Source: Patescibacteria group bacterium (GTDB lineage: Bacteria > Patescibacteriota > Microgenomatia > UBA8517). From it: a DNA stretch of 64,000 nucleotides. The DNA is taken from the NCBI GenBank assembly GCA_041742135.1, contig JBGSJG010000004.1, positions 171,773 through 235,772 of the forward strand, read 5' to 3'. Positions 5,499 to 21,841 of this stretch are shown piece by piece. The notes beneath the pieces were generated by a model, which saw only the letters and a program-made list of their open reading frames with translations, ran no database searches and was not told the origin of the DNA. A program made the position numbers and the translations under genes. The first letter of the stretch is position 1. Each line of letters opens with the position of its first letter.

Positions 5499-6195
5499 AA
5501 ATTCGTAGTACCTCCTCGGCAGTTCCCCAAGGCGCGACATGGTCCGCCCGGATTTCGCTATGAGCTTTTCTGTTACCAAGTTCTGTATAGCCCAGAGCTT
5601 CTGATGTCGAAAACATAATATTTGGCTCTTCTGATTTATACTCCTCAGCGGGAACAGGGAAGATGCCAAGGTGGTTTTCGAATCTGCCAGGCTCACCCCA
5701 ATACATTCGCAAAAGCCCGGGAGGAGTTTCTTCAAGCGATGGATATTTGCTGTAGCGCTCTTCAAGCGTCTTAACTAGGGCGCTTTTGGTAGTGATCAGG
5801 CTATTCATAAGCTTTCGTTCGCGATAGGAAAATATTGGAGGCTTCACCCAAGAAAATATTGACCATTTATTAATGTTGTAAGAAAACATGTTGTCGTCAG
5901 CTGGGCGATAGTCAAAGTGAGAAGGATGATAAAGCATGTCGTCTTCAGCCATGGCAACGTACTTTGTTTGGGCGGCTCGGGCTCCAAGAAGCACTTGGTG
6001 GTAGATCATATAATTGGATCTTTTTTGTACTCCAATACAGATATTAGTGCAATTGTTTCCGATTACTGTTGGTTTAAAAGAAACGCTAACAATAGGCGTG
6101 TCGCCGATGGCTTTTAATAAATACTCTTGAGTGTTGGCCATAAAATGGTCACTGTTCATGTTTGCTGTGTAGTAGATGATTGTCAGGTCGTTCAT
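5491..6195 (-). CDS. Hypothetical protein, homologous to the C-terminal domain of the adjacent GT2 fusion (unknown, sugar-transferase-associated domain).
   Basis: The shared motif EDDMLYHPSHFDYRP parallels CEHDCIYHPSHFEFTP in the neighbour. It is coupled to neighbours on both sides by 4-8 nt overlaps. Confidence 0.55.
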   Translation of the reverse strand: MNDLTIIYYTANMNSDHFMANTQEYLLKAIGDTPIVSVSFKPTVIGNNCTNICIGVQKRSNYMIYHQVLLGARAAQTKYVAMAEDDMLYHPSHFDYRPADDNMFSYNINKWSIFSWVKPPIFSYRERKLMNSLITTKSALVKTLEERYSKYPSLEETPPGLLRMYWGEPGRFENHLGIFPVPAEEYKSEEPNIMFSTSEALGYTELGNRKAHSEIRADHVAPWGTAEEVLRIYG

Positions 6196-7049
6196 ATATT
6201 TTGGTTAATAAACTCTTGCCATATTTTGTATTTTTCTTTGTATATTTTGAAGTATGGATGATCTTCTTGGCCTTGCCAATAGGTTTCGTTAAGTTCAATC
6301 CCCGGCGCTTCATCTGTAAGGTTTTTAATTGGATTAGAAGCTCTTTTGTGCTCAACTGTGGCAAAGCCCGAAACAACTGCCCAGCCAAGTTTATCTAATT
6401 CGCGCTTGCTTGTGATCCCCGCGAATATATCATCGAAACGATTGATACCCAAAGCCCACGGCGCATGAAAGATATAGGGGAGAACTTTTCGTTTGAACGC
6501 AAGATTCATGCTACACATTGGGTAGTAAACACCTTTTGGAATGGGGCCTTTATAAAAAGTCGTTTTTCGTTTGTCACCAAGAACGAGCTGAGTTGGGGCA
6601 TCCCAGTCTCCCGAGCCTTCCCATACGCCGTGCGAGATAACAACTTCAGCTTCGTTTCTAATTGAGTAAGGGAAGCCTCTTGTGTAATCTGTGGCTGTGG
6701 AAATCCAGCTCACAGGGACATTTTGGTTGAGCGCAATAAGGTGGTCGGCGATAGTGTCGCCAAGAGGGAAGACGTCGTCATCCAAAGTAATGATAGTGTC
6801 AATGTCTTTAAGATTTTTCGCGACATAGGCGAAGCCCAAGTTTCTGATTCCTGCATTAAAGTTGGTCAATGCTTGAGCGTGTTTGCCCATCACCTCTTTG
6901 ACGCCTTTGCCATTAACTGTAGGATTTTTCCCGTCTTCGACTACAACCAATGTGCAGTCGTGCGCCTCAAATAGCTCCTGCCATGCACTTTTAAAAGCCT
7001 TGAACATACTCGGCCTGATGGTTGGAATTACAATAGCGATATTTGCCAT
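6192..7049 (-). CDS. RGP / GT75-family protein (reversibly glycosylated polypeptide / UDP-L-arabinopyranose-mutase-like).
   Basis: I recognise similarity to plant RGP1. IAIVIPTIRP...LVVVEDG parallels DIVIPTIRN...LIIVQDGD. ISHGVWEGSGDWDAPTQLV parallels VSHGLWLNIPDYDAPTQLV. PMCSMNLAF parallels PMCGMNLAF. RFDDIFAG parallels RYDDMWAG. HKRASNPIKNL parallels HSKASNPFVNL. Confidence 0.7.
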   Translation of the reverse strand: MANIAIVIPTIRPSMFKAFKSAWQELFEAHDCTLVVVEDGKNPTVNGKGVKEVMGKHAQALTNFNAGIRNLGFAYVAKNLKDIDTIITLDDDVFPLGDTIADHLIALNQNVPVSWISTATDYTRGFPYSIRNEAEVVISHGVWEGSGDWDAPTQLVLGDKRKTTFYKGPIPKGVYYPMCSMNLAFKRKVLPYIFHAPWALGINRFDDIFAGITSKRELDKLGWAVVSGFATVEHKRASNPIKNLTDEAPGIELNETYWQGQEDHPYFKIYKEKYKIWQEFINQNI

Positions 7050-7051
7050 GG

Positions 7052-7714
7052 TTATTTGTGTTTGCTCACGAAAGTTAAATATTCTGTTTCGTATTGATTT
7101 TCGCTGATCTCAGCCACATTTATTTTTTCTTTATAGATCACATAGGGCAGTGCAATTTGGTCACAAGTAAAATATCTGGACTGATAATACCACCAAGATT
7201 TAAGCATGTCGTGAACATTTTTGGTGTTTCTGTAAACAAAAGCGGTTGAGGTGTAAAGCACGGTATCGCGAAAGCCTGTGTCTGCCATCGCCTCGGCTAG
7301 CTGCTCTTTATGGAGCCCATTTTTGTATCTGGAAGTGATATATCGGCCGCCCTCTTGCAGTTTTTCTTCGATATGGTTAGTTTCTTCTGTAATTGAATTT
7401 CTCCAAGGATGTTTGAAAAAAGCCATGTCACTTGAGCCTAGTTTGTCTAAAAGCCAGACGGTTGAGTCCGCCCTAAGCATCGAAAACGAACTATCAAGCC
7501 AAATGTAAACATCATAATCGGGAAGCATCTGCCAGCCAAAAAGCTTGGGGATTCTGTATTGGAAACGTGGCGTAAGCCCTGTGATCGGAGGGAAGTCGTG
7601 GTCGGTGAAGCGGTGGAAATGTACTTTGGTAAAACCTGTTGGTGTGTCTTGGGAAACTGGGTCAATAGGTACATCGAAACTTCCTAAATTGGCCGACAAG
7701 ATAGCAATTTTCAT
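7052..7714 (-). CDS. Hypothetical protein in the glycosylation island (possible nucleotide-sugar transferase-like; function unassigned).
   Basis: ORF track. The gene is tightly packed between the RGP-like gene and the methyltransferase genes (2-nt spacers). It has no signal peptide or TM helix, and the YDVYIWLDSSF segment is acidic. Confidence 0.5.
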   Translation of the reverse strand: MKIAILSANLGSFDVPIDPVSQDTPTGFTKVHFHRFTDHDFPPITGLTPRFQYRIPKLFGWQMLPDYDVYIWLDSSFSMLRADSTVWLLDKLGSSDMAFFKHPWRNSITEETNHIEEKLQEGGRYITSRYKNGLHKEQLAEAMADTGFRDTVLYTSTAFVYRNTKNVHDMLKSWWYYQSRYFTCDQIALPYVIYKEKINVAEISENQYETEYLTFVSKHK

Positions 7715-9632: not shown

Positions 9633-10640
9633 TTAATCTGCCTCCTCTCGAGCTTTGTCGATTATTATTTGCTCTTTCCAGTTTGCGGGCCAAGTAGGTA
9701 CTGGCCAGAATTTCTCAATTAGCCAGTCAAAATCGTGAACCTTCTTGGGGAATCGGTTGTTGAGCCAGTAATCAATACAATTTTTGCGTCCTCGGTCACG
9801 CTCTGCTTGATGAAAGGCGTAACGTGCATTTGAAAACCCGTAACCCTTACCAGCCTTACCTTTGTGCCAGTGCGCATACCATGTTTTTTTATTAACTATC
9901 ACGCGGCCGCCGCCAAGCCAGGTGTTGTTACAGACTTCTTGAGCTTCCTGGATGAAAGAACCATACAGTTCAATATTCATTGGGCCGATCATCTTGAACC
10001 ACCAATCCCGTGTGGTGAAGTAGAGCGACCCTTGTGCCGACATGTTGTCGTCAATCAGGATGTCTTTGCGGTCAAAATACCTCTGCCTCCAGTCATCACC
10101 ATGGAGGCCGCACGCAGGATCGTGAGTTTTTATGTAAGGGTAAGTCAGGTACATATAGTCTATTGGAGGGCGTGCGTCTGGAGCTACCTCCCATTTTTCG
10201 GGGTCAAGCCGTAGCCTTCGAGGGATAACAACCCAGTTGTCATCACAGTCCGCCTTGAGCTTCGTATCAAACCCTTGATCGAACAAACAGTGGCCGTCAG
10301 ACTTCATAACATATTTTCCTCTGGCAATGGCCATGCCAGCGTTAATACACTGTCTCATGCCTTTGTTCTCATGAATTGTTCCGTGATGAAGAATAATGAG
10401 ATTTTTGTGTTCAGGAAGTGGGGGATCAGGCCAATAGCCATCAAGCACGACGATCACTTCAATTGAGCCTTCGGCCTTGGTAAAAAGATCGTTGACTGTT
10501 TGTTCGAGATACTTCTCGTTTCTGGTTGGAATAATAACAGACACGTCCGGCATGATCATCCCAAAAATACCACACTTCTTGGCATAAGTACATACATATT
10601 TTATTAAACTAGAAGAGGCTACTGTAGTAATCGTAAGCAA
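9633..10640 (-). CDS. GT2-family glycosyltransferase.
   Basis: VSVIIPTRNE...IEVIVVLDGYW...KSDGHCLFDQGFD. It is paralogous to the GT2 domain of 3801..5498 (VNKKTWYAHW parallels VNKKTWYAHM). The track start is a TTG at 10640 overlapping the upstream gene by 32 nt. The real start is probably the internal Met near 10554-10560 (MIMPDVSVII). Confidence 0.75.
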   Translation of the reverse strand: MLTITTVASSSLIKYVCTYAKKCGIFGMIMPDVSVIIPTRNEKYLEQTVNDLFTKAEGSIEVIVVLDGYWPDPPLPEHKNLIILHHGTIHENKGMRQCINAGMAIARGKYVMKSDGHCLFDQGFDTKLKADCDDNWVVIPRRLRLDPEKWEVAPDARPPIDYMYLTYPYIKTHDPACGLHGDDWRQRYFDRKDILIDDNMSAQGSLYFTTRDWWFKMIGPMNIELYGSFIQEAQEVCNNTWLGGGRVIVNKKTWYAHWHKGKAGKGYGFSNARYAFHQAERDRGRKNCIDYWLNNRFPKKVHDFDWLIEKFWPVPTWPANWKEQIIIDKAREEAD

Positions 10641-11235
10641 GTTTCTCTCGAGCAGCCCATTTACCGGGGAAGTCAGAATCGCCTTTAGTATAGCGGAATG
10701 AACTCGATTCAGTGTCTTCTCTCATAATCAGCCAACCGCCATCCTTGTTTGTAAATCCATAATAGGTAATTACGTTATCGTCGATTTCAGAAATTTGATA
10801 GCCATCGAGTGGCTGGCGTTCGGCTGGGGAGATTTTTTTACCTTCGCTGTTTTCAAGAGACGTTAAGCTGGGTGTGCTCGCTTGGCCCGGCAGAATGTTG
10901 CCGACTTTTCCTCGGAGTAGTGAAAACAGGAAGAAGGAAAGTCCTGCAGCACCCACAAGTTTCAGAAATGCCCTCTTGTCAATGTCTGCCACCTCGACAG
11001 AGGTTTTGCGGGCTTCTTCAGGTGGCTCTACTGTTTCCGGCTCCGCCCTGGATACCTGAATGGAAACCTCTCTGACTTGTTTTTTGTGTGGCAAGAGCTT
11101 GACCGCCAAGATGGCGAGTAGAGGATACAACAGTGTGGCAACCCCCAACTGTGTGTACGTTCGAGCGGTTAAAAACAAAATAACAACAACAAGGAAAGCT
11201 ACTGATAAACTGGTATAGGTGAGGGTCTTTCGCAT
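10609..11235 (-). CDS. Hypothetical membrane protein (two N-terminal TM helices, charged linker, third TM, ~100-aa C-terminal extracytoplasmic domain).
   Basis: ORF track. Hydrophobic stretches are LSVAFLVVVILFL, ATLLYPLLAILAV and LVGAAGLSFFLFSLL. No motif is recognised. Confidence 0.5.
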   Translation of the reverse strand: MRKTLTYTSLSVAFLVVVILFLTARTYTQLGVATLLYPLLAILAVKLLPHKKQVREVSIQVSRAEPETVEPPEEARKTSVEVADIDKRAFLKLVGAAGLSFFLFSLLRGKVGNILPGQASTPSLTSLENSEGKKISPAERQPLDGYQISEIDDNVITYYGFTNKDGGWLIMREDTESSSFRYTKGDSDFPGKWAAREKLAYDYYSSLF

Positions 11236-11238
11236 GGC

Positions 11239-12378
11239 TTAATAAATAAACGCGTAATCTGCGGATATAAAACCAGTATCGTCAAGCAGCTTTATTTCAA
11301 GCCACCCGGGATGTAAAGAGACCAAGTCAAATACATCTCCAGATTTCGCTTCTCCAATTTTCTCTGATTGTGCCGTCGGCTCTTTGCGAATGTTTACGCT
11401 CGCCAAGGCACTTTCTGCAATTACTGTAACTTTTGCGTAACCTAACGGGCTTGGAGTCTCTAGGGTCTCCACCACTTCCTCAACAGGTTCAAGTGGGGCA
11501 GGTGAGGGTGTTTCTACGGTTGTAACTGCCAACACTTGCGTTTCCTGCGTGTCTTGAGCAGAAGAAATTCTTACGTTACTGTACCCCACGCCGACAAGCA
11601 TAAAAAATAATACTATTAGGCTAACGTACTCAGGAGTTCTTGATAAACGCACTATTTCCGCATTTAAGGCCTCATGCTTGCGAGGACTACTTGCAAGGAT
11701 CGGTTTTGTATCAGTCTTTGCAAGTGTATGGGGGATATTCTCTAGAACTATGTCTAAAAGCAAATCGCCGTTTTCTAACTCGGCCTGATGCTTCTTTTGC
11801 AAATCTACAAAACTTTTAGCGCCTTCCTCTTTTAAGGCAGAAAGGACAATTTTTGTGTTCACCCACGATGTTTGCTTTTTCCCCGAATATTCGGGATATG
11901 TTGAGATGCGAGCGCCGTTTTGGATGTGCGCAGTGAGATGAGCAAGTTGCGCCGATGTTTCAATTTTCGCAGACTTATAAGGCCCTTCAAAGAGTGCTCC
12001 TGAGTGTTTATACTTTCTGTTGAAGTAAATTGAATAGCGTGTGCAAAGCGATCTGATAAAACTCTCGATTGCTTTCTCCTCAACTTGGTGGAGGAGAAGA
12101 TGGAAGTGGTCTGGGAAAAGGCTAAACGCCAAAAGTTGGATTTTTCCGAAGTAGTTTTTTGGCAGATGCGGCGTTCCTTTGTATGTGCGGCCTTTTACTG
12201 TAAAATCTTTTTTGAGGCTACTTGGGTCGTGAGGTGCGCTCAAATACTCGCCTAAATAGGCTACAAATACGCTGTAATCATCGTCATCTCCGAAGATGAT
12301 TCTATTCGCTGCACCTTTGTTGTAGACGTGCGAATTTGTCCCTTTTTCAGGCGACCTGAGCAGGCTCTTGGCAGGCAT
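11239..12378 (-). CDS. RAYT / IS200-like HuH tyrosine-transposase domain fused to a TM helix and a C-terminal SH3b-like domain.
   Basis: The HuH motif is PDHFHLLLH. YFNRKYKHSGALFEGPYKSAKIE matches the Y1-transposase/RAYT signature (YFNRRxGRSGxLFQGRYK). This is followed by the hydrophobic LIVLFFMLVGVGY and then GYAKVTVIAESALASVNIRKEPTAQSEKIGEAKSGDVFDLVSL..WLEIKL (SH3b-like). Confidence 0.7.
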   Translation of the reverse strand: MPAKSLLRSPEKGTNSHVYNKGAANRIIFGDDDDYSVFVAYLGEYLSAPHDPSSLKKDFTVKGRTYKGTPHLPKNYFGKIQLLAFSLFPDHFHLLLHQVEEKAIESFIRSLCTRYSIYFNRKYKHSGALFEGPYKSAKIETSAQLAHLTAHIQNGARISTYPEYSGKKQTSWVNTKIVLSALKEEGAKSFVDLQKKHQAELENGDLLLDIVLENIPHTLAKTDTKPILASSPRKHEALNAEIVRLSRTPEYVSLIVLFFMLVGVGYSNVRISSAQDTQETQVLAVTTVETPSPAPLEPVEEVVETLETPSPLGYAKVTVIAESALASVNIRKEPTAQSEKIGEAKSGDVFDLVSLHPGWLEIKLLDDTGFISADYAFIY

Positions 12379-12490
12379 AATTAAACTTAGCTTGTAAGAA
12401 GAGACTTTGCAAGTATCAGTTTGATAGCATGAATAGCCATTAGAGATACGCTATACTATTTAGAGAATCCGCTCGAATTGGTAGAGAAGC

Positions 12491-12563
12491 GGGCCTGTAG
12501 CTCATCTGGTAGAGCGCTGCATTCGCATTGCAGAGGTAAGGGGTTCGATTCCCCTCAGGTCCA
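12491..12563 (+). tRNA. tRNA-Ala (anticodon CGC).
   Basis: It forms a cloverleaf. The acceptor is GGGCCUG/CAGGUCC with the G3:U70 Ala identity pair. The D-arm is GUAGCUCAUCUGGUAGAGCG. The anticodon arm is CUGCA-UUCGCAU-UGCAG. The T-arm is AGGGG-UUCGAUU-CCCCU. The discriminator is A and CCA is not encoded. Confidence 0.9.
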
Positions 12564-12688
12564 CTAAATGGTGGTTGAGCACATCAAGCCCAGAAGGATT
12601 AGTGGAGTTATGGAAAGGTATGTCTTCGCAAGCAGAAGTGGCTTAGGATTCAAATGACGGGCATAGTTATTTAATCTCTTCAAGTTAA

Positions 12689-14737
12689 CTAGGGGAGCGG
12701 ACTAGGTGTGACTGAAGCTTCAGGCGTACCAGTAGCTTCAGGTGCGGGTGTTACTTCTGGTTGAGGTGGCTCTGCATCTTCAGGTAACTCGATCGGGGGA
12801 GTAAGCGTTTCTTCCTCGCCAGATGGAGGCGGAGTTAAATTGGTTGAGCTTTCGTCCGTGACAGTTTGTCCCGCCTTGAGGTTCTGCAAATCTTCTAATG
12901 CTTTGGAAGCGACACTAAAGTCATCTGAATTGCGATCCACAAGTGCCAAGACCTGACTCATGGAAGCAATGGCTCGGTCAATATTGCCATTCTCTCTGTA
13001 AGCTACAGCCAGGTTGTAATGAGCATTTGCGTGGTTTGGTTTGGTAGCGACAGCCAGTTTAAAGACATCTATGGCATCTTCGTATGCTTTGGCGGAGTAA
13101 TAGATTCCACCCAAAGCAATTCTTGCATTGGTGTTTAGAGGGTCAAGTGCGATGGCCTGAGCGTAAGTCTGTACAGCAAATGCATCTGCGCCTTGAGCGA
13201 GTGGCATAACTGTTCTGTATATTGAGGCCAAAACCTCCCAATTGCCGGCACGAGCTGGGTTAAGCGTTACCGCCGCTTTTCCCTCAGCGATAGCTTGCTG
13301 AATAAGTGTTGCAATTGCACTTCTGTCTTCTTCAGTCAATTCTTCTTTTTGGGCTAGGGAGTTAGCAAGTGCCAAGTTGATCTGCGCATATGTAATTCTG
13401 TAGCGGTCAACGTAAAGATTTGTAGTAATTGCAGCTCGAAGAGTGTCATACGCTTTAGCGCCATCATTTCTAACTATGTGATCCAACGCCTGCTTATAGG
13501 TAAGATCAGCAGCAACAATCCTTGTAGCCTGCAAGCCAACGTAGCCTACGAACACGATTATCGGCAAGCTAGCGAAAATTACGGGGAGCCTTGCTGCAAA
13601 TGGAATGGATGCCCCGTCGTGCTCAGTATTAAACAAACCCATTTTAACGGACGTGCTTTGGCTAATTACTGCCAATAAGACAAAAAAGATGAATAGTACG
13701 GTCGGAGTTACAGGGAATAAAAGCATTGAGACTGCGAGTATGATAGCGGAAAGCTCTGCAGCTCCTTCTGGCTTTATAAAATGTTTAGTACCTTTCTTGG
13801 CATTGGAGACGACCATTCTCGCCAAGAAGTAAAACAAAAGGATCAACGAGGCGGTTCCTACTAAGCCAGTTTCAGTTATAGCGGTGAATAGATAATTTTG
13901 GCCAGAGGTGAATCTGGTTGACCAAAGATCACTGGCATTATACGAAGCGGGTCTAAATTGATTAAATGCTGACAAGTAGTTTCCAGGCCCCACACCCAAT
14001 AGGGGGTTTTGTTTTAGTGAGTCGACGGCTATGGACCATGAAGTGTCGACTCCAGGTAGTGCTAACGATGTATCTTTTCCTGGAAGGATATTAACTAGAG
14101 ACATTAAAGCGGCCAAAACCATCAATGCAAAAGTGATTCCCGAAAGAGCCTTAACAGCTACAGATTTTTCGCTTATAACATATGACAAAGCTAGGGGGGA
14201 CATGGCAACTAGAATTATTAATGCAGGCAATGGACCACCAAGCGTTGTAAATCCGGCTGACTGCATAAAAGCCGGTAGCCCAAGCCCTCGAAATACCCCC
14301 GCGGAGGCAAAAAGAACAACTACTGCAAGGATTGCGCTCGAGCCGAGCATTACCATTTTGAGCACATCTTTTCCTTTTTTGTTCATTTGGCTAACGATAA
14401 AGAAGCCAAGTCCTGAAAGTACAACTGCAGTGGCTGTGCCGGGGAGGAAAAAAGCCTCCATTTTGTTTGGCGTTTGGAGTATTGCGCTTGCAATGTAGGC
14501 CGCGGCAATCAGTATCACAGGAAGATCAAAAGCGCTTGCAGAGAAGGTGAGTGAATTTTTGATTAAGTTGCGAGCGCTTTTAATCAACAACACTATACCA
14601 ATAGTAATAGTTAGAAACGCTAGCTTGGGTGTAACGAATGCATTGGCGAATTGTGGTAGGACCAATAAAGGTAGCAAACCAACCGCCGCATGCATTATGT
14701 AGTTTTCAAATCTGCTATTAGTTGTTTGATTATCCAT
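12689..14737 (-). CDS. Polytopic membrane protein, O-antigen-ligase/Wzy_C-like, with C-terminal TPR repeats and a Pro/Thr/Glu-rich tail.
   Basis: There are more than 10 predicted TM helices in the first ~400 aa. The C-terminal segment has TPR-like repeats (AYEDAIDVFKLAVATKPNHANAHYNLAVAYRENGNIDRAI). The terminal low-complexity tail is TPPPSGEEETLTPPIELPEDAEPPQPEVTPAPEATGTPEASVTPSPLP. The Wzy_C assignment is by architecture, not a verified motif. Confidence 0.6.
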   Translation of the reverse strand: MDNQTTNSRFENYIMHAAVGLLPLLVLPQFANAFVTPKLAFLTITIGIVLLIKSARNLIKNSLTFSASAFDLPVILIAAAYIASAILQTPNKMEAFFLPGTATAVVLSGLGFFIVSQMNKKGKDVLKMVMLGSSAILAVVVLFASAGVFRGLGLPAFMQSAGFTTLGGPLPALIILVAMSPLALSYVISEKSVAVKALSGITFALMVLAALMSLVNILPGKDTSLALPGVDTSWSIAVDSLKQNPLLGVGPGNYLSAFNQFRPASYNASDLWSTRFTSGQNYLFTAITETGLVGTASLILLFYFLARMVVSNAKKGTKHFIKPEGAAELSAIILAVSMLLFPVTPTVLFIFFVLLAVISQSTSVKMGLFNTEHDGASIPFAARLPVIFASLPIIVFVGYVGLQATRIVAADLTYKQALDHIVRNDGAKAYDTLRAAITTNLYVDRYRITYAQINLALANSLAQKEELTEEDRSAIATLIQQAIAEGKAAVTLNPARAGNWEVLASIYRTVMPLAQGADAFAVQTYAQAIALDPLNTNARIALGGIYYSAKAYEDAIDVFKLAVATKPNHANAHYNLAVAYRENGNIDRAIASMSQVLALVDRNSDDFSVASKALEDLQNLKAGQTVTDESSTNLTPPPSGEEETLTPPIELPEDAEPPQPEVTPAPEATGTPEASVTPSPLP

Positions 14738-14823: not shown

Positions 14824-15579
14824 TTAAAATATAGAATGATATACTTCTGTATTATCAACTTTCCACTGAAAGTCGCATTCCCATTCAAGTGAGCTTTCAA
14901 TTGCAACAACAAAGTATCCTTCACCTTGGCTTTTGACATACAGACTTTGACCGTTTGTGGGAGAGTTTGCTGTAAGACTAATAAATGATTCATCGTTCAC
15001 AAGATTACTTAGCACGAGTGCTTCCTTTTTATTGGCGGCAATTTCGCTCTTACCAACGGACACGGCATAGCTTTCAATCGACTGACTGGTTGTTGTCTCG
15101 AGTGGGTCAGTAATTGAATTATGGATATCGTCTGTAAGTGGTGGAGTTTTTAAGACTATAAAATCGTCCGTACCAGAAGAAGCGAGTCTAGCAATTGCCT
15201 TGCTGTTACTATTAATAGTATTGCTTTCCGGAACCATTGCGGGATTATTTACTTCTATGTAAGAAACTGAAGGGGAGGCGCTTCGAAAGAAATGGCTTGA
15301 CACTGCGGAAAGAGAGAGGATAGATAAAGCCGCCAGGGCATATACCCCAAATGATTGGTAACGTCGTGAATTAGTGAATTCTAAATATCTCTTGATAGCG
15401 TAATTTCTCCTTTTGATGGTGGCTGGGCTGTAAGCTTTTTCTTCATCGCTAGCCAAAAAGGAACGAACATCGCTAATATAATTTTTAACTGTTGTTTCTG
15501 AGGCGCCAGATTTTTCAAGCGATCGCTTAAAGTCGGCTAATACTTTAGGGGTACTGTGAGAGTGTAACTTTATAATCAT
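14824..15579 (-). CDS. Hypothetical membrane-anchored protein with an N-terminal phage-integrase-SAM-like (core-binding-type) helical domain.
   Basis: N-terminus is FKRSLEKSGASETTVKNYISDVRSFL...IKRRNYAIKRYLEF (integrase N-terminal-like). It has a single TM (VYALAALSILSLSAV) and a Ser/Thr/Asn-rich C-terminal region. Confidence 0.45.
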   Translation of the reverse strand: MIIKLHSHSTPKVLADFKRSLEKSGASETTVKNYISDVRSFLASDEEKAYSPATIKRRNYAIKRYLEFTNSRRYQSFGVYALAALSILSLSAVSSHFFRSASPSVSYIEVNNPAMVPESNTINSNSKAIARLASSGTDDFIVLKTPPLTDDIHNSITDPLETTTSQSIESYAVSVGKSEIAANKKEALVLSNLVNDESFISLTANSPTNGQSLYVKSQGEGYFVVAIESSLEWECDFQWKVDNTEVYHSIF

Positions 15580-19294: not shown

Positions 19295-19930
19295 ATGACA
19301 AATGAAGAGCCAGCTGCCCGCTGGGGGCAAGATCTGCTTATTCGCTTCAGATGGCAGATTGTTATTCTCTTGGTTGGCCTTACTTTGGTTGGTGTGGGTT
19401 ACTACATTTCAAATACTCCCAAATCACCAGAAATTCAGATACTCGACGAGGCAGAAGGAGGAGACTCGGCATCTGTTGTAACTGTTGAAATTGCGGGCTC
19501 AGTAAATCGCCCGGGAGTCTATAGCCTTGCGGCGGGAGCCAGAATTGATGATCTGATAAATAACGCCGAAGGTTTAAACGATTTGGCGGATGGCCAGTGG
19601 GTGGAGAAGTACCTAAATCGCGCTGCGATACTAATTGACGGTCAAAAAATTTACATTCCATCGGTTGATGAGCAGTTGCCACCATCGAGTGCCAGAAGTG
19701 ACATGGGGGATCAAAGTGTAAACCAGGTGTTTGGGAGCAGTGACACAAGAGTGATAAACGTCAACACTGCGAGCCAGAAGGAGCTGGAGGAGTTACCGGG
19801 AATTGGCCCTGTTTACGCCCAAAAGATAATTGATAACAGGCCTTACTCAAGTGTGGAGGATCTTCGCACCCGCGAGGTTTTGAGGCAAAACGTTTTTGAA
19901 GAGATTAAAAACGCAGTAACAGTTTACTAA
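19295..19930 (+). CDS. comEA: Competence protein ComEA (SLBB domain + tandem helix-hairpin-helix DNA-binding domain).
   Basis: N-terminal TM helix. The SLBB-like segment is VTVEIAGSVNRPGVYSLAAGARIDDLI. The C-terminal HhH segment is VNVNTASQKELEELPGIGPVYAQKIIDNRPYSSVEDL. Confidence 0.85.
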   Translation: MTNEEPAARWGQDLLIRFRWQIVILLVGLTLVGVGYYISNTPKSPEIQILDEAEGGDSASVVTVEIAGSVNRPGVYSLAAGARIDDLINNAEGLNDLADGQWVEKYLNRAAILIDGQKIYIPSVDEQLPPSSARSDMGDQSVNQVFGSSDTRVINVNTASQKELEELPGIGPVYAQKIIDNRPYSSVEDLRTREVLRQNVFEEIKNAVTVY

Positions 19931-19937
19931 AAAGTGC

Positions 19938-20993
19938 ATGCCAAAAATTATTTTTGTGCTTCTAGCGGCTTTTGCTCTACTTCGAATACTTACTTTCGGC
20001 TACGAGTACCCAGAGGGCAAGCTTGTCAGAATATCTACGCGACTGAGTAGCGAGCCTGGGGTGTATGGAAACTCGCGTTTTATTATCCTTCACGGACTTA
20101 AAGCCTATGTGCCAATTTTGCCCGAAGTAAGTTACGGTGACTACGTTGTTGTGGAGGGAAAGGTGAATGGCGACAAACTTGAAAACGTTAAGGTAGTTAG
20201 CATTAAAGAGGGCGGCGGGCTTTTTAATCTTCGCCGAAAAATTCTTGCGATTTATCAGAAAGCTTTGCCCGAGCCCCACGCTTCACTTGTGGCTGGCATT
20301 GTCTTGGGAAGTAAAAGCTCGCTACCCGAAAGCTTTTGGGAAAAGCTGAAACTCTCGGGGACTGCCCATGTAGTGGTGGCTTCGGGCATGAACGTCACTC
20401 TTGTTATCTCTTTTTTGCTAAGTATTTTATTAAATGTAACAAAAAGATATAAAGCTATATGTTTTGCAATATTTGGGGCGTGGGTTTATGTTGTCTTGTC
20501 TGGGCTTGATGCGCCTTTGGTTCGAGCTGCCATTATGGGAACAATTGCGTTTGGAGCACAAGCGGTGGGACGGCTTTCAAGCGCAATCCGTGCGCTTTTT
20601 CTCTCGGGACTTGTCATGTTGATTGTAAAGCCCGAGTGGGCGCGCGACCTGGGATTTATCCTATCATTTGTCGCAACATTGTCATTGGTACTATTTGAGG
20701 CCAAAATTGCCAAAGCACTAGCTCGCCTGCCTTTAATTTTCAAGAAAGACCTTGCAACTACACTTTCGGCTCAGATTGGAGTAGCGCCAATTCTTCTAGC
20801 AACGTTTGGGACTTTTAACCCGCTTTCACCTTTCATAAACGCTCTGATACTTTGGACTGTCCCGCCTATCATGATAGTTGGAGCATTTGCTGGCTTGGCT
20901 GGTATGGTTATCGAGCCTTTGGGGATACTGATTACATATTTGGCTTTTCCTTTTACTTTCTGGTTTGTTAAAGTTGTTGAATATTTATCGTGA
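19938..20993 (+). CDS. comEC: ComEC/Rec2 N-terminal part (DUF4131-like + polytopic competence membrane domain).
   Basis: N-terminal TM + OB-like region, then multiple TM helices. It ends in a GTGA overlap with the next ORF, which carries the metallo-beta-lactamase domain. Confidence 0.8.
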   Translation: MPKIIFVLLAAFALLRILTFGYEYPEGKLVRISTRLSSEPGVYGNSRFIILHGLKAYVPILPEVSYGDYVVVEGKVNGDKLENVKVVSIKEGGGLFNLRRKILAIYQKALPEPHASLVAGIVLGSKSSLPESFWEKLKLSGTAHVVVASGMNVTLVISFLLSILLNVTKRYKAICFAIFGAWVYVVLSGLDAPLVRAAIMGTIAFGAQAVGRLSSAIRALFLSGLVMLIVKPEWARDLGFILSFVATLSLVLFEAKIAKALARLPLIFKKDLATTLSAQIGVAPILLATFGTFNPLSPFINALILWTVPPIMIVGAFAGLAGMVIEPLGILITYLAFPFTFWFVKVVEYLS

Positions 20994-21841
20994 CCAATAA
21001 ATCCTGGTTGTTTACATTTACAATTCTTTTTCTGGCTGCGCTCATTGTTTGGATTGGTGCACTGAATCGCCCGACTCAAAAGCTTAAGGTGATTGCTTGC
21101 GATGTGGGGCAAGGGGACGCGTATTTAATAACACTCGGAAACTTTCAGGCTCTTATCGACGGCGGCCCTAATAACAAAGTTCTTGATTGTCTGGGAAGAT
21201 ACGTTTCATTTTTTGATCGTGATATCGAGATCGTAATTCAAACTCACCCGGACGCGGACCACTATACCGGGCTTGTTGAGGTCTTAAAAAGATATAACGT
21301 CAAACACCTTGTTTATAGCGAAGCTCGCAAAGATAACGACGCTTATAGCGAGTTTCTTGATGCTGCCAATGCTGAGGGCGCAAATAGGGTAGTGGCAGTA
21401 AGTGGCAAAAAAATTGTATATGGAGATTTACATTTTGAGATAGTAAGCCCTATTAATTCGATGTTTGTAGCAGGGGAGGAAATTGACGAAGATGAGTCAA
21501 ACGACTATTCTGTTGTAACTCACTTGGTATATGGGGATTTTAGTGCTCTTTTTACCGGGGACTTAACACCAAAAGTAACCCAGAAACTTGTGAGCTTAAA
21601 CCAAATTCCAGATGTTGATTACTTAAGCGTTCCGCATCATGGATCAAAAAATGGTTTAACACAGATACTACTACAAAAGACTACACCTAACGTTACTGTA
21701 ATCTCAGTGGGACTCAAAAATCGCTACGGCCACCCGCACGAGGATGTTTTGAAGTTACTTGATGGTTATAAGTATTTTAGGACAGACCAGGTAGGTGAAG
21801 TGGTTTTGCAGGGTGATGGAAAAATTTGGGATATTTATTAA
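20990..21841 (+). CDS. comEC: ComEC C-terminal metallo-beta-lactamase (MBL-fold nuclease) domain as a separate ORF.
   Basis: VIACDVGQGDAYLI...IDGGP...IQTHPDADHYTGL is the MBL HxHxDH-type motif. GTG start at 20990 overlaps the upstream TGA (GTGA). Confidence 0.8.
   Translation: MTNKSWLFTFTILFLAALIVWIGALNRPTQKLKVIACDVGQGDAYLITLGNFQALIDGGPNNKVLDCLGRYVSFFDRDIEIVIQTHPDADHYTGLVEVLKRYNVKHLVYSEARKDNDAYSEFLDAANAEGANRVVAVSGKKIVYGDLHFEIVSPINSMFVAGEEIDEDESNDYSVVTHLVYGDFSALFTGDLTPKVTQKLVSLNQIPDVDYLSVPHHGSKNGLTQILLQKTTPNVTVISVGLKNRYGHPHEDVLKLLDGYKYFRTDQVGEVVLQGDGKIWDIY

Follow-up and report, generated by a model that had tools for sequence, protein, structure and literature searches.

The gene at 11239-12378 on the reverse strand of a 64,000-nucleotide stretch of DNA from a Patescibacteria group bacterium (the window, meaning the whole stretch that was analysed) encodes a protein in which a domain of the REP-associated tyrosine transposases (RAYTs; REP, repetitive extragenic palindromic) is joined to a transmembrane (TM) helix and a bacterial SH3b domain. 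RAYTs are the textbook example of a transposase kept by its host, and the benefit to the host is still debated. The family of the window protein takes this retention further: the residues for cutting decay, while the hairpin-binding helix and two palindromes stay, and the protein has also become connected to membrane and cell wall and to a constant partner beside surface-glycan genes. We tentatively read the gene as an exapted REPtron whose product may now act as a membrane-tethered, wall-coupled, palindrome-binding (auto)regulator, a reading that we prefer while giving it somewhat less than even confidence. Earlier work had described RAYTs together with the REPs that accompany them, and also RAYT fusions to DnaA_C or helix-turn-helix (HTH) domains (PMC6006769); what is new here is a protein that derives from a RAYT, has an eroded catalytic site and an anchor in membrane and wall, retains its cognate palindromes and is bound to an obligate partner gene.

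The reading frame is single and uninterrupted over 379 residues, and the SH3b/TM part is not a separate open reading frame (ORF). A combination of HUH, TM and SH3b parts had been put forward in an original prediction made from the letters of the DNA, and Pfam, AlphaFold and Foldseek agree on it; the domain architecture is real, far beyond chance. The gene and its domains are:

11239-12378, reverse strand: coding sequence of the HUH(RAYT-like)-linker-TM-linker-SH3b protein (ORF call, Pfam, homologue search, AlphaFold model, Foldseek).
11764-12378, reverse strand: RAYT-like HUH domain, residues 1-205, predicted to be cytoplasmic (alignment, AlphaFold model, Foldseek).
11557-11637, reverse strand: single TM helix, residues 248-274, predicted N-in/C-out (AlphaFold model, hydrophobicity in the family, charge bias).
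11242-11436, reverse strand: SH3b domain, residues 315-379, predicted to be extracytoplasmic, after a Pro/Thr/Glu-rich linker (Pfam, PDB profile, Foldseek).

In Pfam, Y1_Tnp (PF01797) matched residues 79-154 with 29.1 bits (cut-off 23) and SH3_3 matched residues 327-375 with 33.6 bits (cut-off 27; SH3b itself is PF08239), and the curated NCBIfam RAYT model NF047646 (REP_Tyr_transpos) gave the window protein 17.2 bits, below its cut-off of 80. The AlphaFold model, built from 117 homologues, has a mean pLDDT of 82.9. Its compact N-terminal domain (residues 6-210) and its SH3 barrel (residues 315-379) exceed a pLDDT of 90, and between them lie a disordered stretch (217-246), a long helix (248-274) and a second disordered, Pro/Thr/Glu-rich stretch. 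The top Foldseek match of the N-terminal domain in the PDB is the E. coli RAYT bound to its REP hairpin (4er8_A; E 1e-4, TM-score normalized to the target 0.62), followed by the TnpA structures of ISDra2, IS608 and IS200. The C-terminal domain superposes on bacterial SH3b structures (2krs; TM-score 0.75, rmsd 1.3 Å), and a PDB profile search found 4krt for the SH3b domain at 8e-12. By sequence profile against the PDB, only the HUH strand of ISDra2 TnpA was matched by the N-terminal domain (E about 0.008), and RayT was not recovered.

The N-terminal 250-residue part is folded and has no signal peptide before it. Lys and Arg are more frequent on the N-side of the TM helix than on its C-side (2.88 versus 1.71; N>C in 154 proteins, N<C in 29), and because of this positive-inside bias an N-in topology is favoured. 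The HUH domain is accordingly predicted to lie inside the cell and the SH3b domain, a putative wall-binding module, outside. The membrane-anchored, wall-facing protein first envisaged is in line with these predictions, namely the modelled TM helix and the N-in bias of its flanks.

The active site of E. coli RayT comprises H59-M-H61, Y115, N119, H123 and E161 (PMC3479197). In a MAFFT alignment with RayT and stand-alone relatives of the family, H59 and H61 align with H91 and H93 of the window protein, and its HUH motif P-D-H91-F-H93-L-L-L-H is present as originally noticed (H91-F-H93 at 12100-12108, reverse strand). There are, however, two differences from an active RAYT. The first is the nucleophile: the column of RayT Y115 is occupied by His151 ('LTAHIQNG'; 11926-11928, reverse strand). 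The segment YFNRKYKHSGALFEGPYKSAKIE, which had been taken for the Y1 signature, is not the Tyr motif; it matches a helix and strand that class-2 RAYTs conserve ahead of their catalytic helix. The second difference is a deletion, as the fused family is short of the 10-12 residues that would hold the equivalents of RayT N119 and H123. The window protein contains neither the Y-x3-Q of IS200/IS605 TnpA (His151 stands in its place, with no Q/N ligand after it) nor the RAYT motif Y-I-x-x-N-P with its N(+4) and H(+8) ligands (the deletion takes away the NP segment). Judged by this alignment, the window copy almost certainly cannot form the canonical phosphotyrosine link, and the single-stranded DNA (ssDNA) nuclease domain of the original prediction is not supported for it, with His at the nucleophile and two ligands deleted. 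The residue mapping relies on MAFFT with the bridging stand-alone relatives; hhalign against RayT covered 18 columns, the HUH strand only. These relatives, of 220-230 residues, keep the canonical 'RYIHLNP' ('LSRYIHLNP') and 'YSSY..YLG' motifs, by which they bridge the fused family to the class-2 RAYTs.

Erosion of the active site is a property of the family. The H/H/Y triad is intact in 133 of 262 family proteins (51%), with HHF in 31 and HHH in 30; H91 is conserved in 78% and H93 in 90%. On a neighbour-joining tree of the 253 proteins with a near-complete N-terminal domain, the minimum number of state changes is at least 59 for the Tyr, at least 29 for H91 and at least 18 for H93. By contrast, D34, N75 and R114 (window numbering) are invariant, and N20, Y115 and N120 are more than 99% conserved. 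From the free changes of the triad against these invariant residues, we conclude that catalysis is not under selection in the family.

An invariant helix, R109-Y123, aligns with helix alphaC of RayT (R78, K81, K82, Q83, T85 and H86), the helix that inserts into the REP hairpin, and residues 57-77 form a family-specific beta-hairpin with a GxPH(Q/L)PKNY insertion. To judge from their conservation, the fold, the beta-hairpin with its GxPH(Q/L)PKNY loop and the helix R109-Y123 are still under selection. The N-terminal domain carries a median net charge of +7 over the family, and some members possess an extra N-terminal MerR-type HTH.

The DNA around the HUH-coding part is also conserved. The original prediction had reported no flanking hairpins. 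This stands for single-sequence folds, which are weak (z about -1), and fails in a comparison of 61 loci, which shows two position-specific palindromes flanking the HUH-coding part; they had been missed because both are weak hairpins on their own.

12384-12415, reverse strand: family-conserved promoter-like element (comparison of upstream DNA across loci; promoter function putative).
11677-11724, reverse strand: internal palindromic element in the codons of the disordered linker, about residues 219-234 (positional histogram and fuzzy match over loci).

The upstream element is 29 nt long, tACTTGCAAAGTCTCTTCTTTCAAGnTAAnnT, and starts 36-37 nt before the ATG in almost every locus, stand-alone genes included. 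In the window it consists of a -35-like TTGCAA (12407-12412), a 17-nt spacer and a -10-like TAAGTT (12384-12389), followed after 5 nt by the ATG at 12378. It holds an imperfect palindrome, CTTGCAAAG-TCTCTT-CTTACAAG (12391-12413), of the form CTTG-C-AAAG / CTT-W-CAAG, in which about 84% of cells are paired across loci; as far as the aligned loci tell, the spacer is conserved far beyond the need of a promoter. The motif was found only once in the 64-kb window. Among 241 million metagenome records, its 23-nt degenerate form has 24 exact matches. For 21 of these, a confirmed HUH-family gene comes directly downstream (35-37 nt away, once 61 nt); two are cut by a contig end and one (L071) lies by a gene fragment.

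The geometry of the element points to the promoter of a leaderless mRNA. This interpretation follows from its spacing together with the other genes of the window: none of 16 gene starts inspected (1054-26878) has a Shine-Dalgarno sequence, and in many of them a TATAAT-like box precedes the ATG by 5-8 nt, so that leaderless mRNAs seem to be the rule in this genome. A generic sigma-70 scanner did not flag the promoter because TAAGTT fits only three of six positions, and readings of the motif as a sigma-54 promoter or a divergent small ORF were dropped by inspection on grounds of spacing and ORF length. Two variants of the region were observed. In loci L009 (about 2923-2983) and L049, an insert of 24 nt separates the promoter element from the ATG and includes AGGCAGG, which complements the nucleotide-conserved codons 2-3 (CCUGCC), making pairing across the start codon possible. 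In L011, L014, L026, L033 and L046, a second 3' half-motif (TCTCCTTTAAAG, then TA..) stands about 45-50 nt upstream of the main palindrome and may represent a tandem promoter or a short transcript.

The second palindrome shares the design of the first, 4 bp, a mismatch, 4 bp and a 5-nt loop. A histogram of CTTG-N11-19-CAAG over the 61 distinct loci has 45 in the bin before the ATG and 17 at +600..+700, on a background of about 1 per 50-nt bin, and a fuzzy match (at most 6 of 23 mismatches) at +560..+780 was obtained in 32 of 56 loci compared with 3 of 223 control windows. Generic best-hairpin scoring did not set +580..+760 apart from controls; only the specific CTTG..CAAG motif is enriched. 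The window copy is diverged and comprises CTTGCAAGTAGTCCTCGCAAG at 11677-11697 and a half-site CTTGCAAAG at 11716-11724. In stand-alone genes this palindrome lies a few nucleotides past the stop codon; in fused genes it lies at the same distance but in frame, in the disordered linker. There it is mostly in reverse orientation, encoding "HLERRDLAR", and is forward in L023 and L032 with unrelated peptides. As either orientation occurs and the peptides differ, the conservation appears to be at the nucleotide level. An antisense-promoter reading of the internal palindrome was dropped by inspection, no TA...T box being present.

A separate stand-alone clade (L047/L048) has the same layout with another sequence, the pattern known for RAYT-REP pairs. 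Its palindrome is perfect (ACTTAGGGGATCAACCCCTAAGT; -9.7 kcal/mol, z -5.8), with arms CTTAGGGG..CCCCTAAG where the Microgenomates form has CTTG..CAAG, and it is found at -32, just past the stop codon and once in frame at codons 50-57. This in-frame copy, CTTAGGGGATCAACCCCTAAG (PLRGSTPKS; 8145-8170 of L047, same position in L048), occupies the same site as the beta-hairpin and PHQPKNY insertion of the fused family, and the insertion may for this reason have arisen from a REP that came to be translated. Cases of REPs inserted into RAYT genes without loss of frame are already known (PMC6006769).

The gene is single-copy and vertically inherited with conserved synteny. Among 5.8 billion proteins searched, 291 full-length relatives were recovered with 40-46% identity, the named ones from Levy-, Curtiss- and Roizmanbacteria, and a filter-free search with the N-terminal domain alone gave 175 clusters at 50% identity (E<1e-30), nearly all of 340-450 residues. 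The N-terminal domain and SH3b occur together in 241 of 262 proteins; a hydrophobic 19-mer follows residue 200 in nearly all long members, and the few members without SH3b retain the TM helix. Database entries carry the label "SH3 domain-containing protein" or "putative transposase". With one genome scanned for each species, 44 loci were located in 43 assemblies, one per genome, and all hosts are Microgenomates-group, WWE3 or unclassified Patescibacteria (the candidate phyla radiation, CPR). Metagenome-assembled genomes with loci L005, L008-L010, L012, L017 and others are titled 'uncultured Gammaproteobacteria' or 'Pseudomonadales', yet they contain a Microgenomates-type locus with the same neighbours, and these titles look like placeholders or misassignments.

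No family member was found in 2.9 million viral contigs, a contig search for the window protein itself gave no match, and TnpB is absent among the neighbours of the gene, as had been reported. The absence of a REP array from the 64-kb window also stood; further dispersed REP/REPIN copies were found neither there nor, above chance-level background, in the 61 loci, and a dispersed population beyond the 64 kb of the genome is possible. The earlier suggestion that the protein is domesticated is well supported by one copy per genome over 44 loci, fixed partner synteny, the eroded active site, the lack of viral occurrences and a motif found nowhere else. Multiple copies with flanking hairpins, as expected of an active insertion sequence, were not seen.

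One neighbour is as constant as the gene itself:

10609-11235, reverse strand: obligate partner gene of 208 residues, starting 3 nt past the stop of the HUH gene (synteny, homologues, model).

A homologue of the partner follows immediately downstream in 43 of 43 loci with a full-length HUH gene and is absent beside five stand-alone genes; in most loci the HUH stop and the partner start overlap or lie no more than about 20 nt apart. The partner has 307 homologues at about 50% identity. It is modelled with three TM helices, a cytoplasmic loop that is disordered, and a beta domain of good confidence at the C-terminus. It matched nothing in Pfam, NCBIfam or PHROG, and its model has no fold match in the PDB. 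An invariant D-x-D-K-R-x-F-L-K motif occupies residues 84-92, directly before the third TM helix; this motif resembles a twin-arginine signal (KR variant), placed after two other TM helices. A glycosyltransferase family 2 (GT2) gene follows in about 30 of 43 loci, with methyltransferases, epimerases and more glycosyltransferases further downstream, and a protein with Wzy_C and tetratricopeptide repeats (TPRs) is often encoded upstream. Glycosyltransferases also adjoin the stand-alone relatives.

These observations can be arranged into a proposed history and mechanism for the exapted REPtron. The stand-alone genes look like small REPtrons, in that a RAYT with canonical motifs is flanked by its own palindromes. 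In the Microgenomates/WWE3 lineage, read-through across the 3' palindrome of such a unit into a TM-SH3b coding segment would have created the fusion, followed by deletion in the Tyr helix and relaxation of the catalytic residues. The product would be a bitopic protein with the HUH domain in the cytoplasm and SH3b on the wall side, made together with the three-TM partner from a leaderless promoter that holds the 5' palindrome. The HUH domain would have lost cutting in the window copy and kept recognition of the imperfect palindromes of the family, its targets being the palindrome at its own promoter and that at the domain boundary of its own gene or mRNA. The outcome might be (auto)regulation of its own operon, which runs into envelope-glycan genes, by a logic like that of ToxR/ToxS and in response to a signal that SH3b and the partner might sense. 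Retained palindrome binding is supported by the match of the invariant helix to the hairpin-binding alphaC of RayT and by the central mismatch kept in the palindromes. A regulator is suggested by the cognate palindromes, the charge of the N-terminal domain (+7), the members with MerR-HTH, the fixed membrane partner and GT2 downstream.

A bolder form of this proposal, which we consider doubtful, would make the protein the first TnpA(Y1)/RAYT-derived membrane-bound one-component regulator, a catalytically dead HUH domain that reads hairpin-forming palindromes and couples wall state to expression of an envelope-glycan operon in the CPR. SH3b plus the partner would sense the wall state, and the palindrome would be read as ssDNA at the opening leaderless promoter, or co-translationally on the protein's own mRNA at the domain boundary.

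Several points weigh against a palindrome-binding regulator. That the HUH domain binds palindromes, or nucleic acid at all, is what we infer, and the equivalence of R109-Y123 with alphaC depends on a low-identity alignment. About half of the family has an intact triad, so that cleavage may persist in some members. As hairpins, both palindromes of the window are weak (-2.1 and -5.5 kcal/mol, z about -1), and covariation in the promoter palindrome is weak or not significant (5 of 500 shuffles in one register, 93 of 500 in the other); the element could therefore be a double-stranded DNA (dsDNA) operator for another factor or a mere promoter. No extra copies of the motif turned up at other promoters, hence no regulon is visible.

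Among the alternatives, the one that survives best, although we think it unlikely, is an envelope scaffold with no nucleic-acid role. Here the HUH fold would serve as a module that binds proteins or some other ligand within a complex for glycan assembly, of which the partner, the Wzy_C/TPR protein and glycosyltransferases would be members, and the palindromes would amount to a promoter and a fusion scar. LCP-type proteins that head capsule operons were once mistaken for regulators, and the tight synteny with envelope-glycan genes and a membrane partner, the unconstrained catalytic residues and the weak folding of the window palindromes would all suit such a module. A scar, however, should decay, whereas the internal palindrome persists as a nucleotide sequence, whichever its orientation, even as its peptide changes, in a region predicted to be disordered. 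Moreover, conservation is highest in the helix that corresponds to the hairpin-binding one of RayT, the MerR-HTH fusions point to DNA, and soluble stand-alone relatives carry the same promoter palindrome.

We regard as improbable a second alternative, that the palindromes serve another factor, as operators for a host regulator or as structural elements with an RNase or terminator function, and that the HUH domain binds a different target. Like a classical dsDNA operator, the 5' palindrome shares nucleotides with the -35 box and borders on the -10 box, and its covariation as a hairpin is weak. Nevertheless, the motif is found only at the HUH-family gene, and in the clade whose HUH protein differs, these positions are taken by another palindrome, as in RAYT-REP pairs.

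Much less credible is a membrane-held, active ssDNA-processing HUH nuclease that acts on DNA taken up by ComEA and ComEC, the connection drawn in the original prediction. The genes (ComEA 19295-19930, ComEC 19938-20993, forward strand) are genuine and lie at a distance of about 7 kb, L004, L017 and L020 are arranged in the same way, and both HUH His residues are present in the window copy. However, this copy has His where the nucleophile Tyr should be and has lost two metal ligands by deletion, and the triad is unconstrained across the family. The com genes lie on the opposite strand beyond the leucyl-tRNA synthetase gene (LeuRS) and near the HUH gene in only those three of 43 other full-length loci, a count limited by the short upstream flanks of many of them; the constant neighbours are the partner and glycan genes. 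The com genes are real, and the link to competence is unsupported. An active, still-moving IS200/IS605 element or REPtron, for which the Y1_Tnp domain and flanking palindromes might speak, is refuted for the window copy by its single copy, its identical chromosomal context in distant genomes with no viral or mobile surroundings, the replaced Tyr and the lack of dispersed palindromes in the window or the 61 loci, and deserves next to no credence.

Other genes around the locus gave further observations. The downstream glycan cluster (6192-7714, reverse strand) encodes a member of the reversibly-glycosylated-polypeptide family (PF03214, 111 bits) as well as a TOD1/MUCI70-like glycosyltransferase domain, both of families best known from plants. 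Upstream, 12689-14737 (reverse strand) encodes a 682-residue polytopic protein with C-terminal TPRs, whose homologues match Wzy_C (L003). A weak NCBIfam match (E 0.0017) to TfpM, an O-linking oligosaccharyltransferase, raises the possibility that it is an enzyme of protein O-glycosylation rather than an O-antigen ligase. The 251-residue protein at 14824-15579 (reverse strand) has a weak N-terminal phage-integrase SAM-like (core-binding) domain (E 5e-4, under the Pfam cut-off), then a TM segment and an outside domain; its homologues lie upstream of the Wzy/TPR gene in L004, L011 and L029. Going by these matches, it is a second membrane protein of the locus built on the DNA-binding domain of a mobile-element enzyme. 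A tRNA-Ala(CGC) gene at 12491-12564 (forward strand) stands between the Wzy/TPR gene and the HUH gene, as it does in L004 and L017; Rfam found only tRNAs. The ORF with the ComEC 'Competence' domain (351 residues) is overlapped by the following ORF of 283 residues (20990-21841, forward strand), so ComEC may be split or the latter may hold its C-terminal domain.

The family offers a tractable system for a non-cutting HUH function, with short oligonucleotides, a soluble domain of 205 residues and natural Tyr+/Tyr- variants. It is also a candidate envelope-linked regulator for Patescibacteria, ultra-small bacteria that have few regulators and to whose epibiotic way of life surface glycans are probably important. 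Finally, it documents gene fusion via read-through of a REP-like palindrome, which has remained conserved although it is now part of the coding sequence.

The closest known system is RAYT/TnpA-REP (class-2 TnpA-Y1; RayT, 4er8). RayT is the best structural match and shares the HUH strand, the alphaC helix and an 'SS-aromatic' motif after the Tyr helix, and both are single-copy, vertically inherited genes flanked by imperfect palindromes with a central mismatch. The window protein differs in having His151 for Tyr, a deleted NPxxxH/G segment and 17 bits against the NCBIfam cut-off of 80, in its TM and SH3b fusion, obligate membrane partner and beta-hairpin with PHQPKNY insertion, and in that no dispersed REP/REPIN population was seen in the 64-kb window or the 61 loci. 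With IS200/IS605 TnpA (IS608, ISDra2) it shares the Y1_Tnp match, the HUH fold and subterminal imperfect palindromes on both sides of the HUH-coding segment; in contrast, it is non-mobile, single-copy, much longer and membrane-anchored, and has neither Y-x3-Q nor TnpB.

Fusions of RAYTs to DnaA_C/HTH (subclass 2.1; TIRYT) have cytoplasmic DNA-binding extras and keep HUH and Tyr (Quentin et al., 2018; PMC6006769). They resemble the window protein in a RAYT core whose extra domains suggest roles other than transposition, but the latter adds a TM helix and an extracytoplasmic wall-binding domain, as predicted, and has eroded catalysis. The same superfamily classification survey mentions no SH3, TM or CPR member (PMC6006769), and full-text searching of the literature found no description of a RAYT-TM-SH3b protein.

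In its predicted layout, the window protein works like the ToxR/ToxS, TcpP/TcpH and CadC-type regulators: an N-terminal cytoplasmic domain for binding nucleic acid, one TM helix, an outside domain and a co-transcribed membrane partner encoded directly downstream. By this analogy it might bind promoter DNA and change transcription as ToxR does. It has an HUH fold instead of an OmpR-type winged helix and no homology to these regulators, so the likeness is one of analogy and not of membership. TldR transcription factors are TnpB-derived, soluble and RNA-guided, and represent an exaptation of the IS200/IS605 family for gene regulation with loss of catalysis. The window protein is alike as a catalysis-losing exaptation from the same family, but it derives from TnpA, whereas TldR derives from TnpB.

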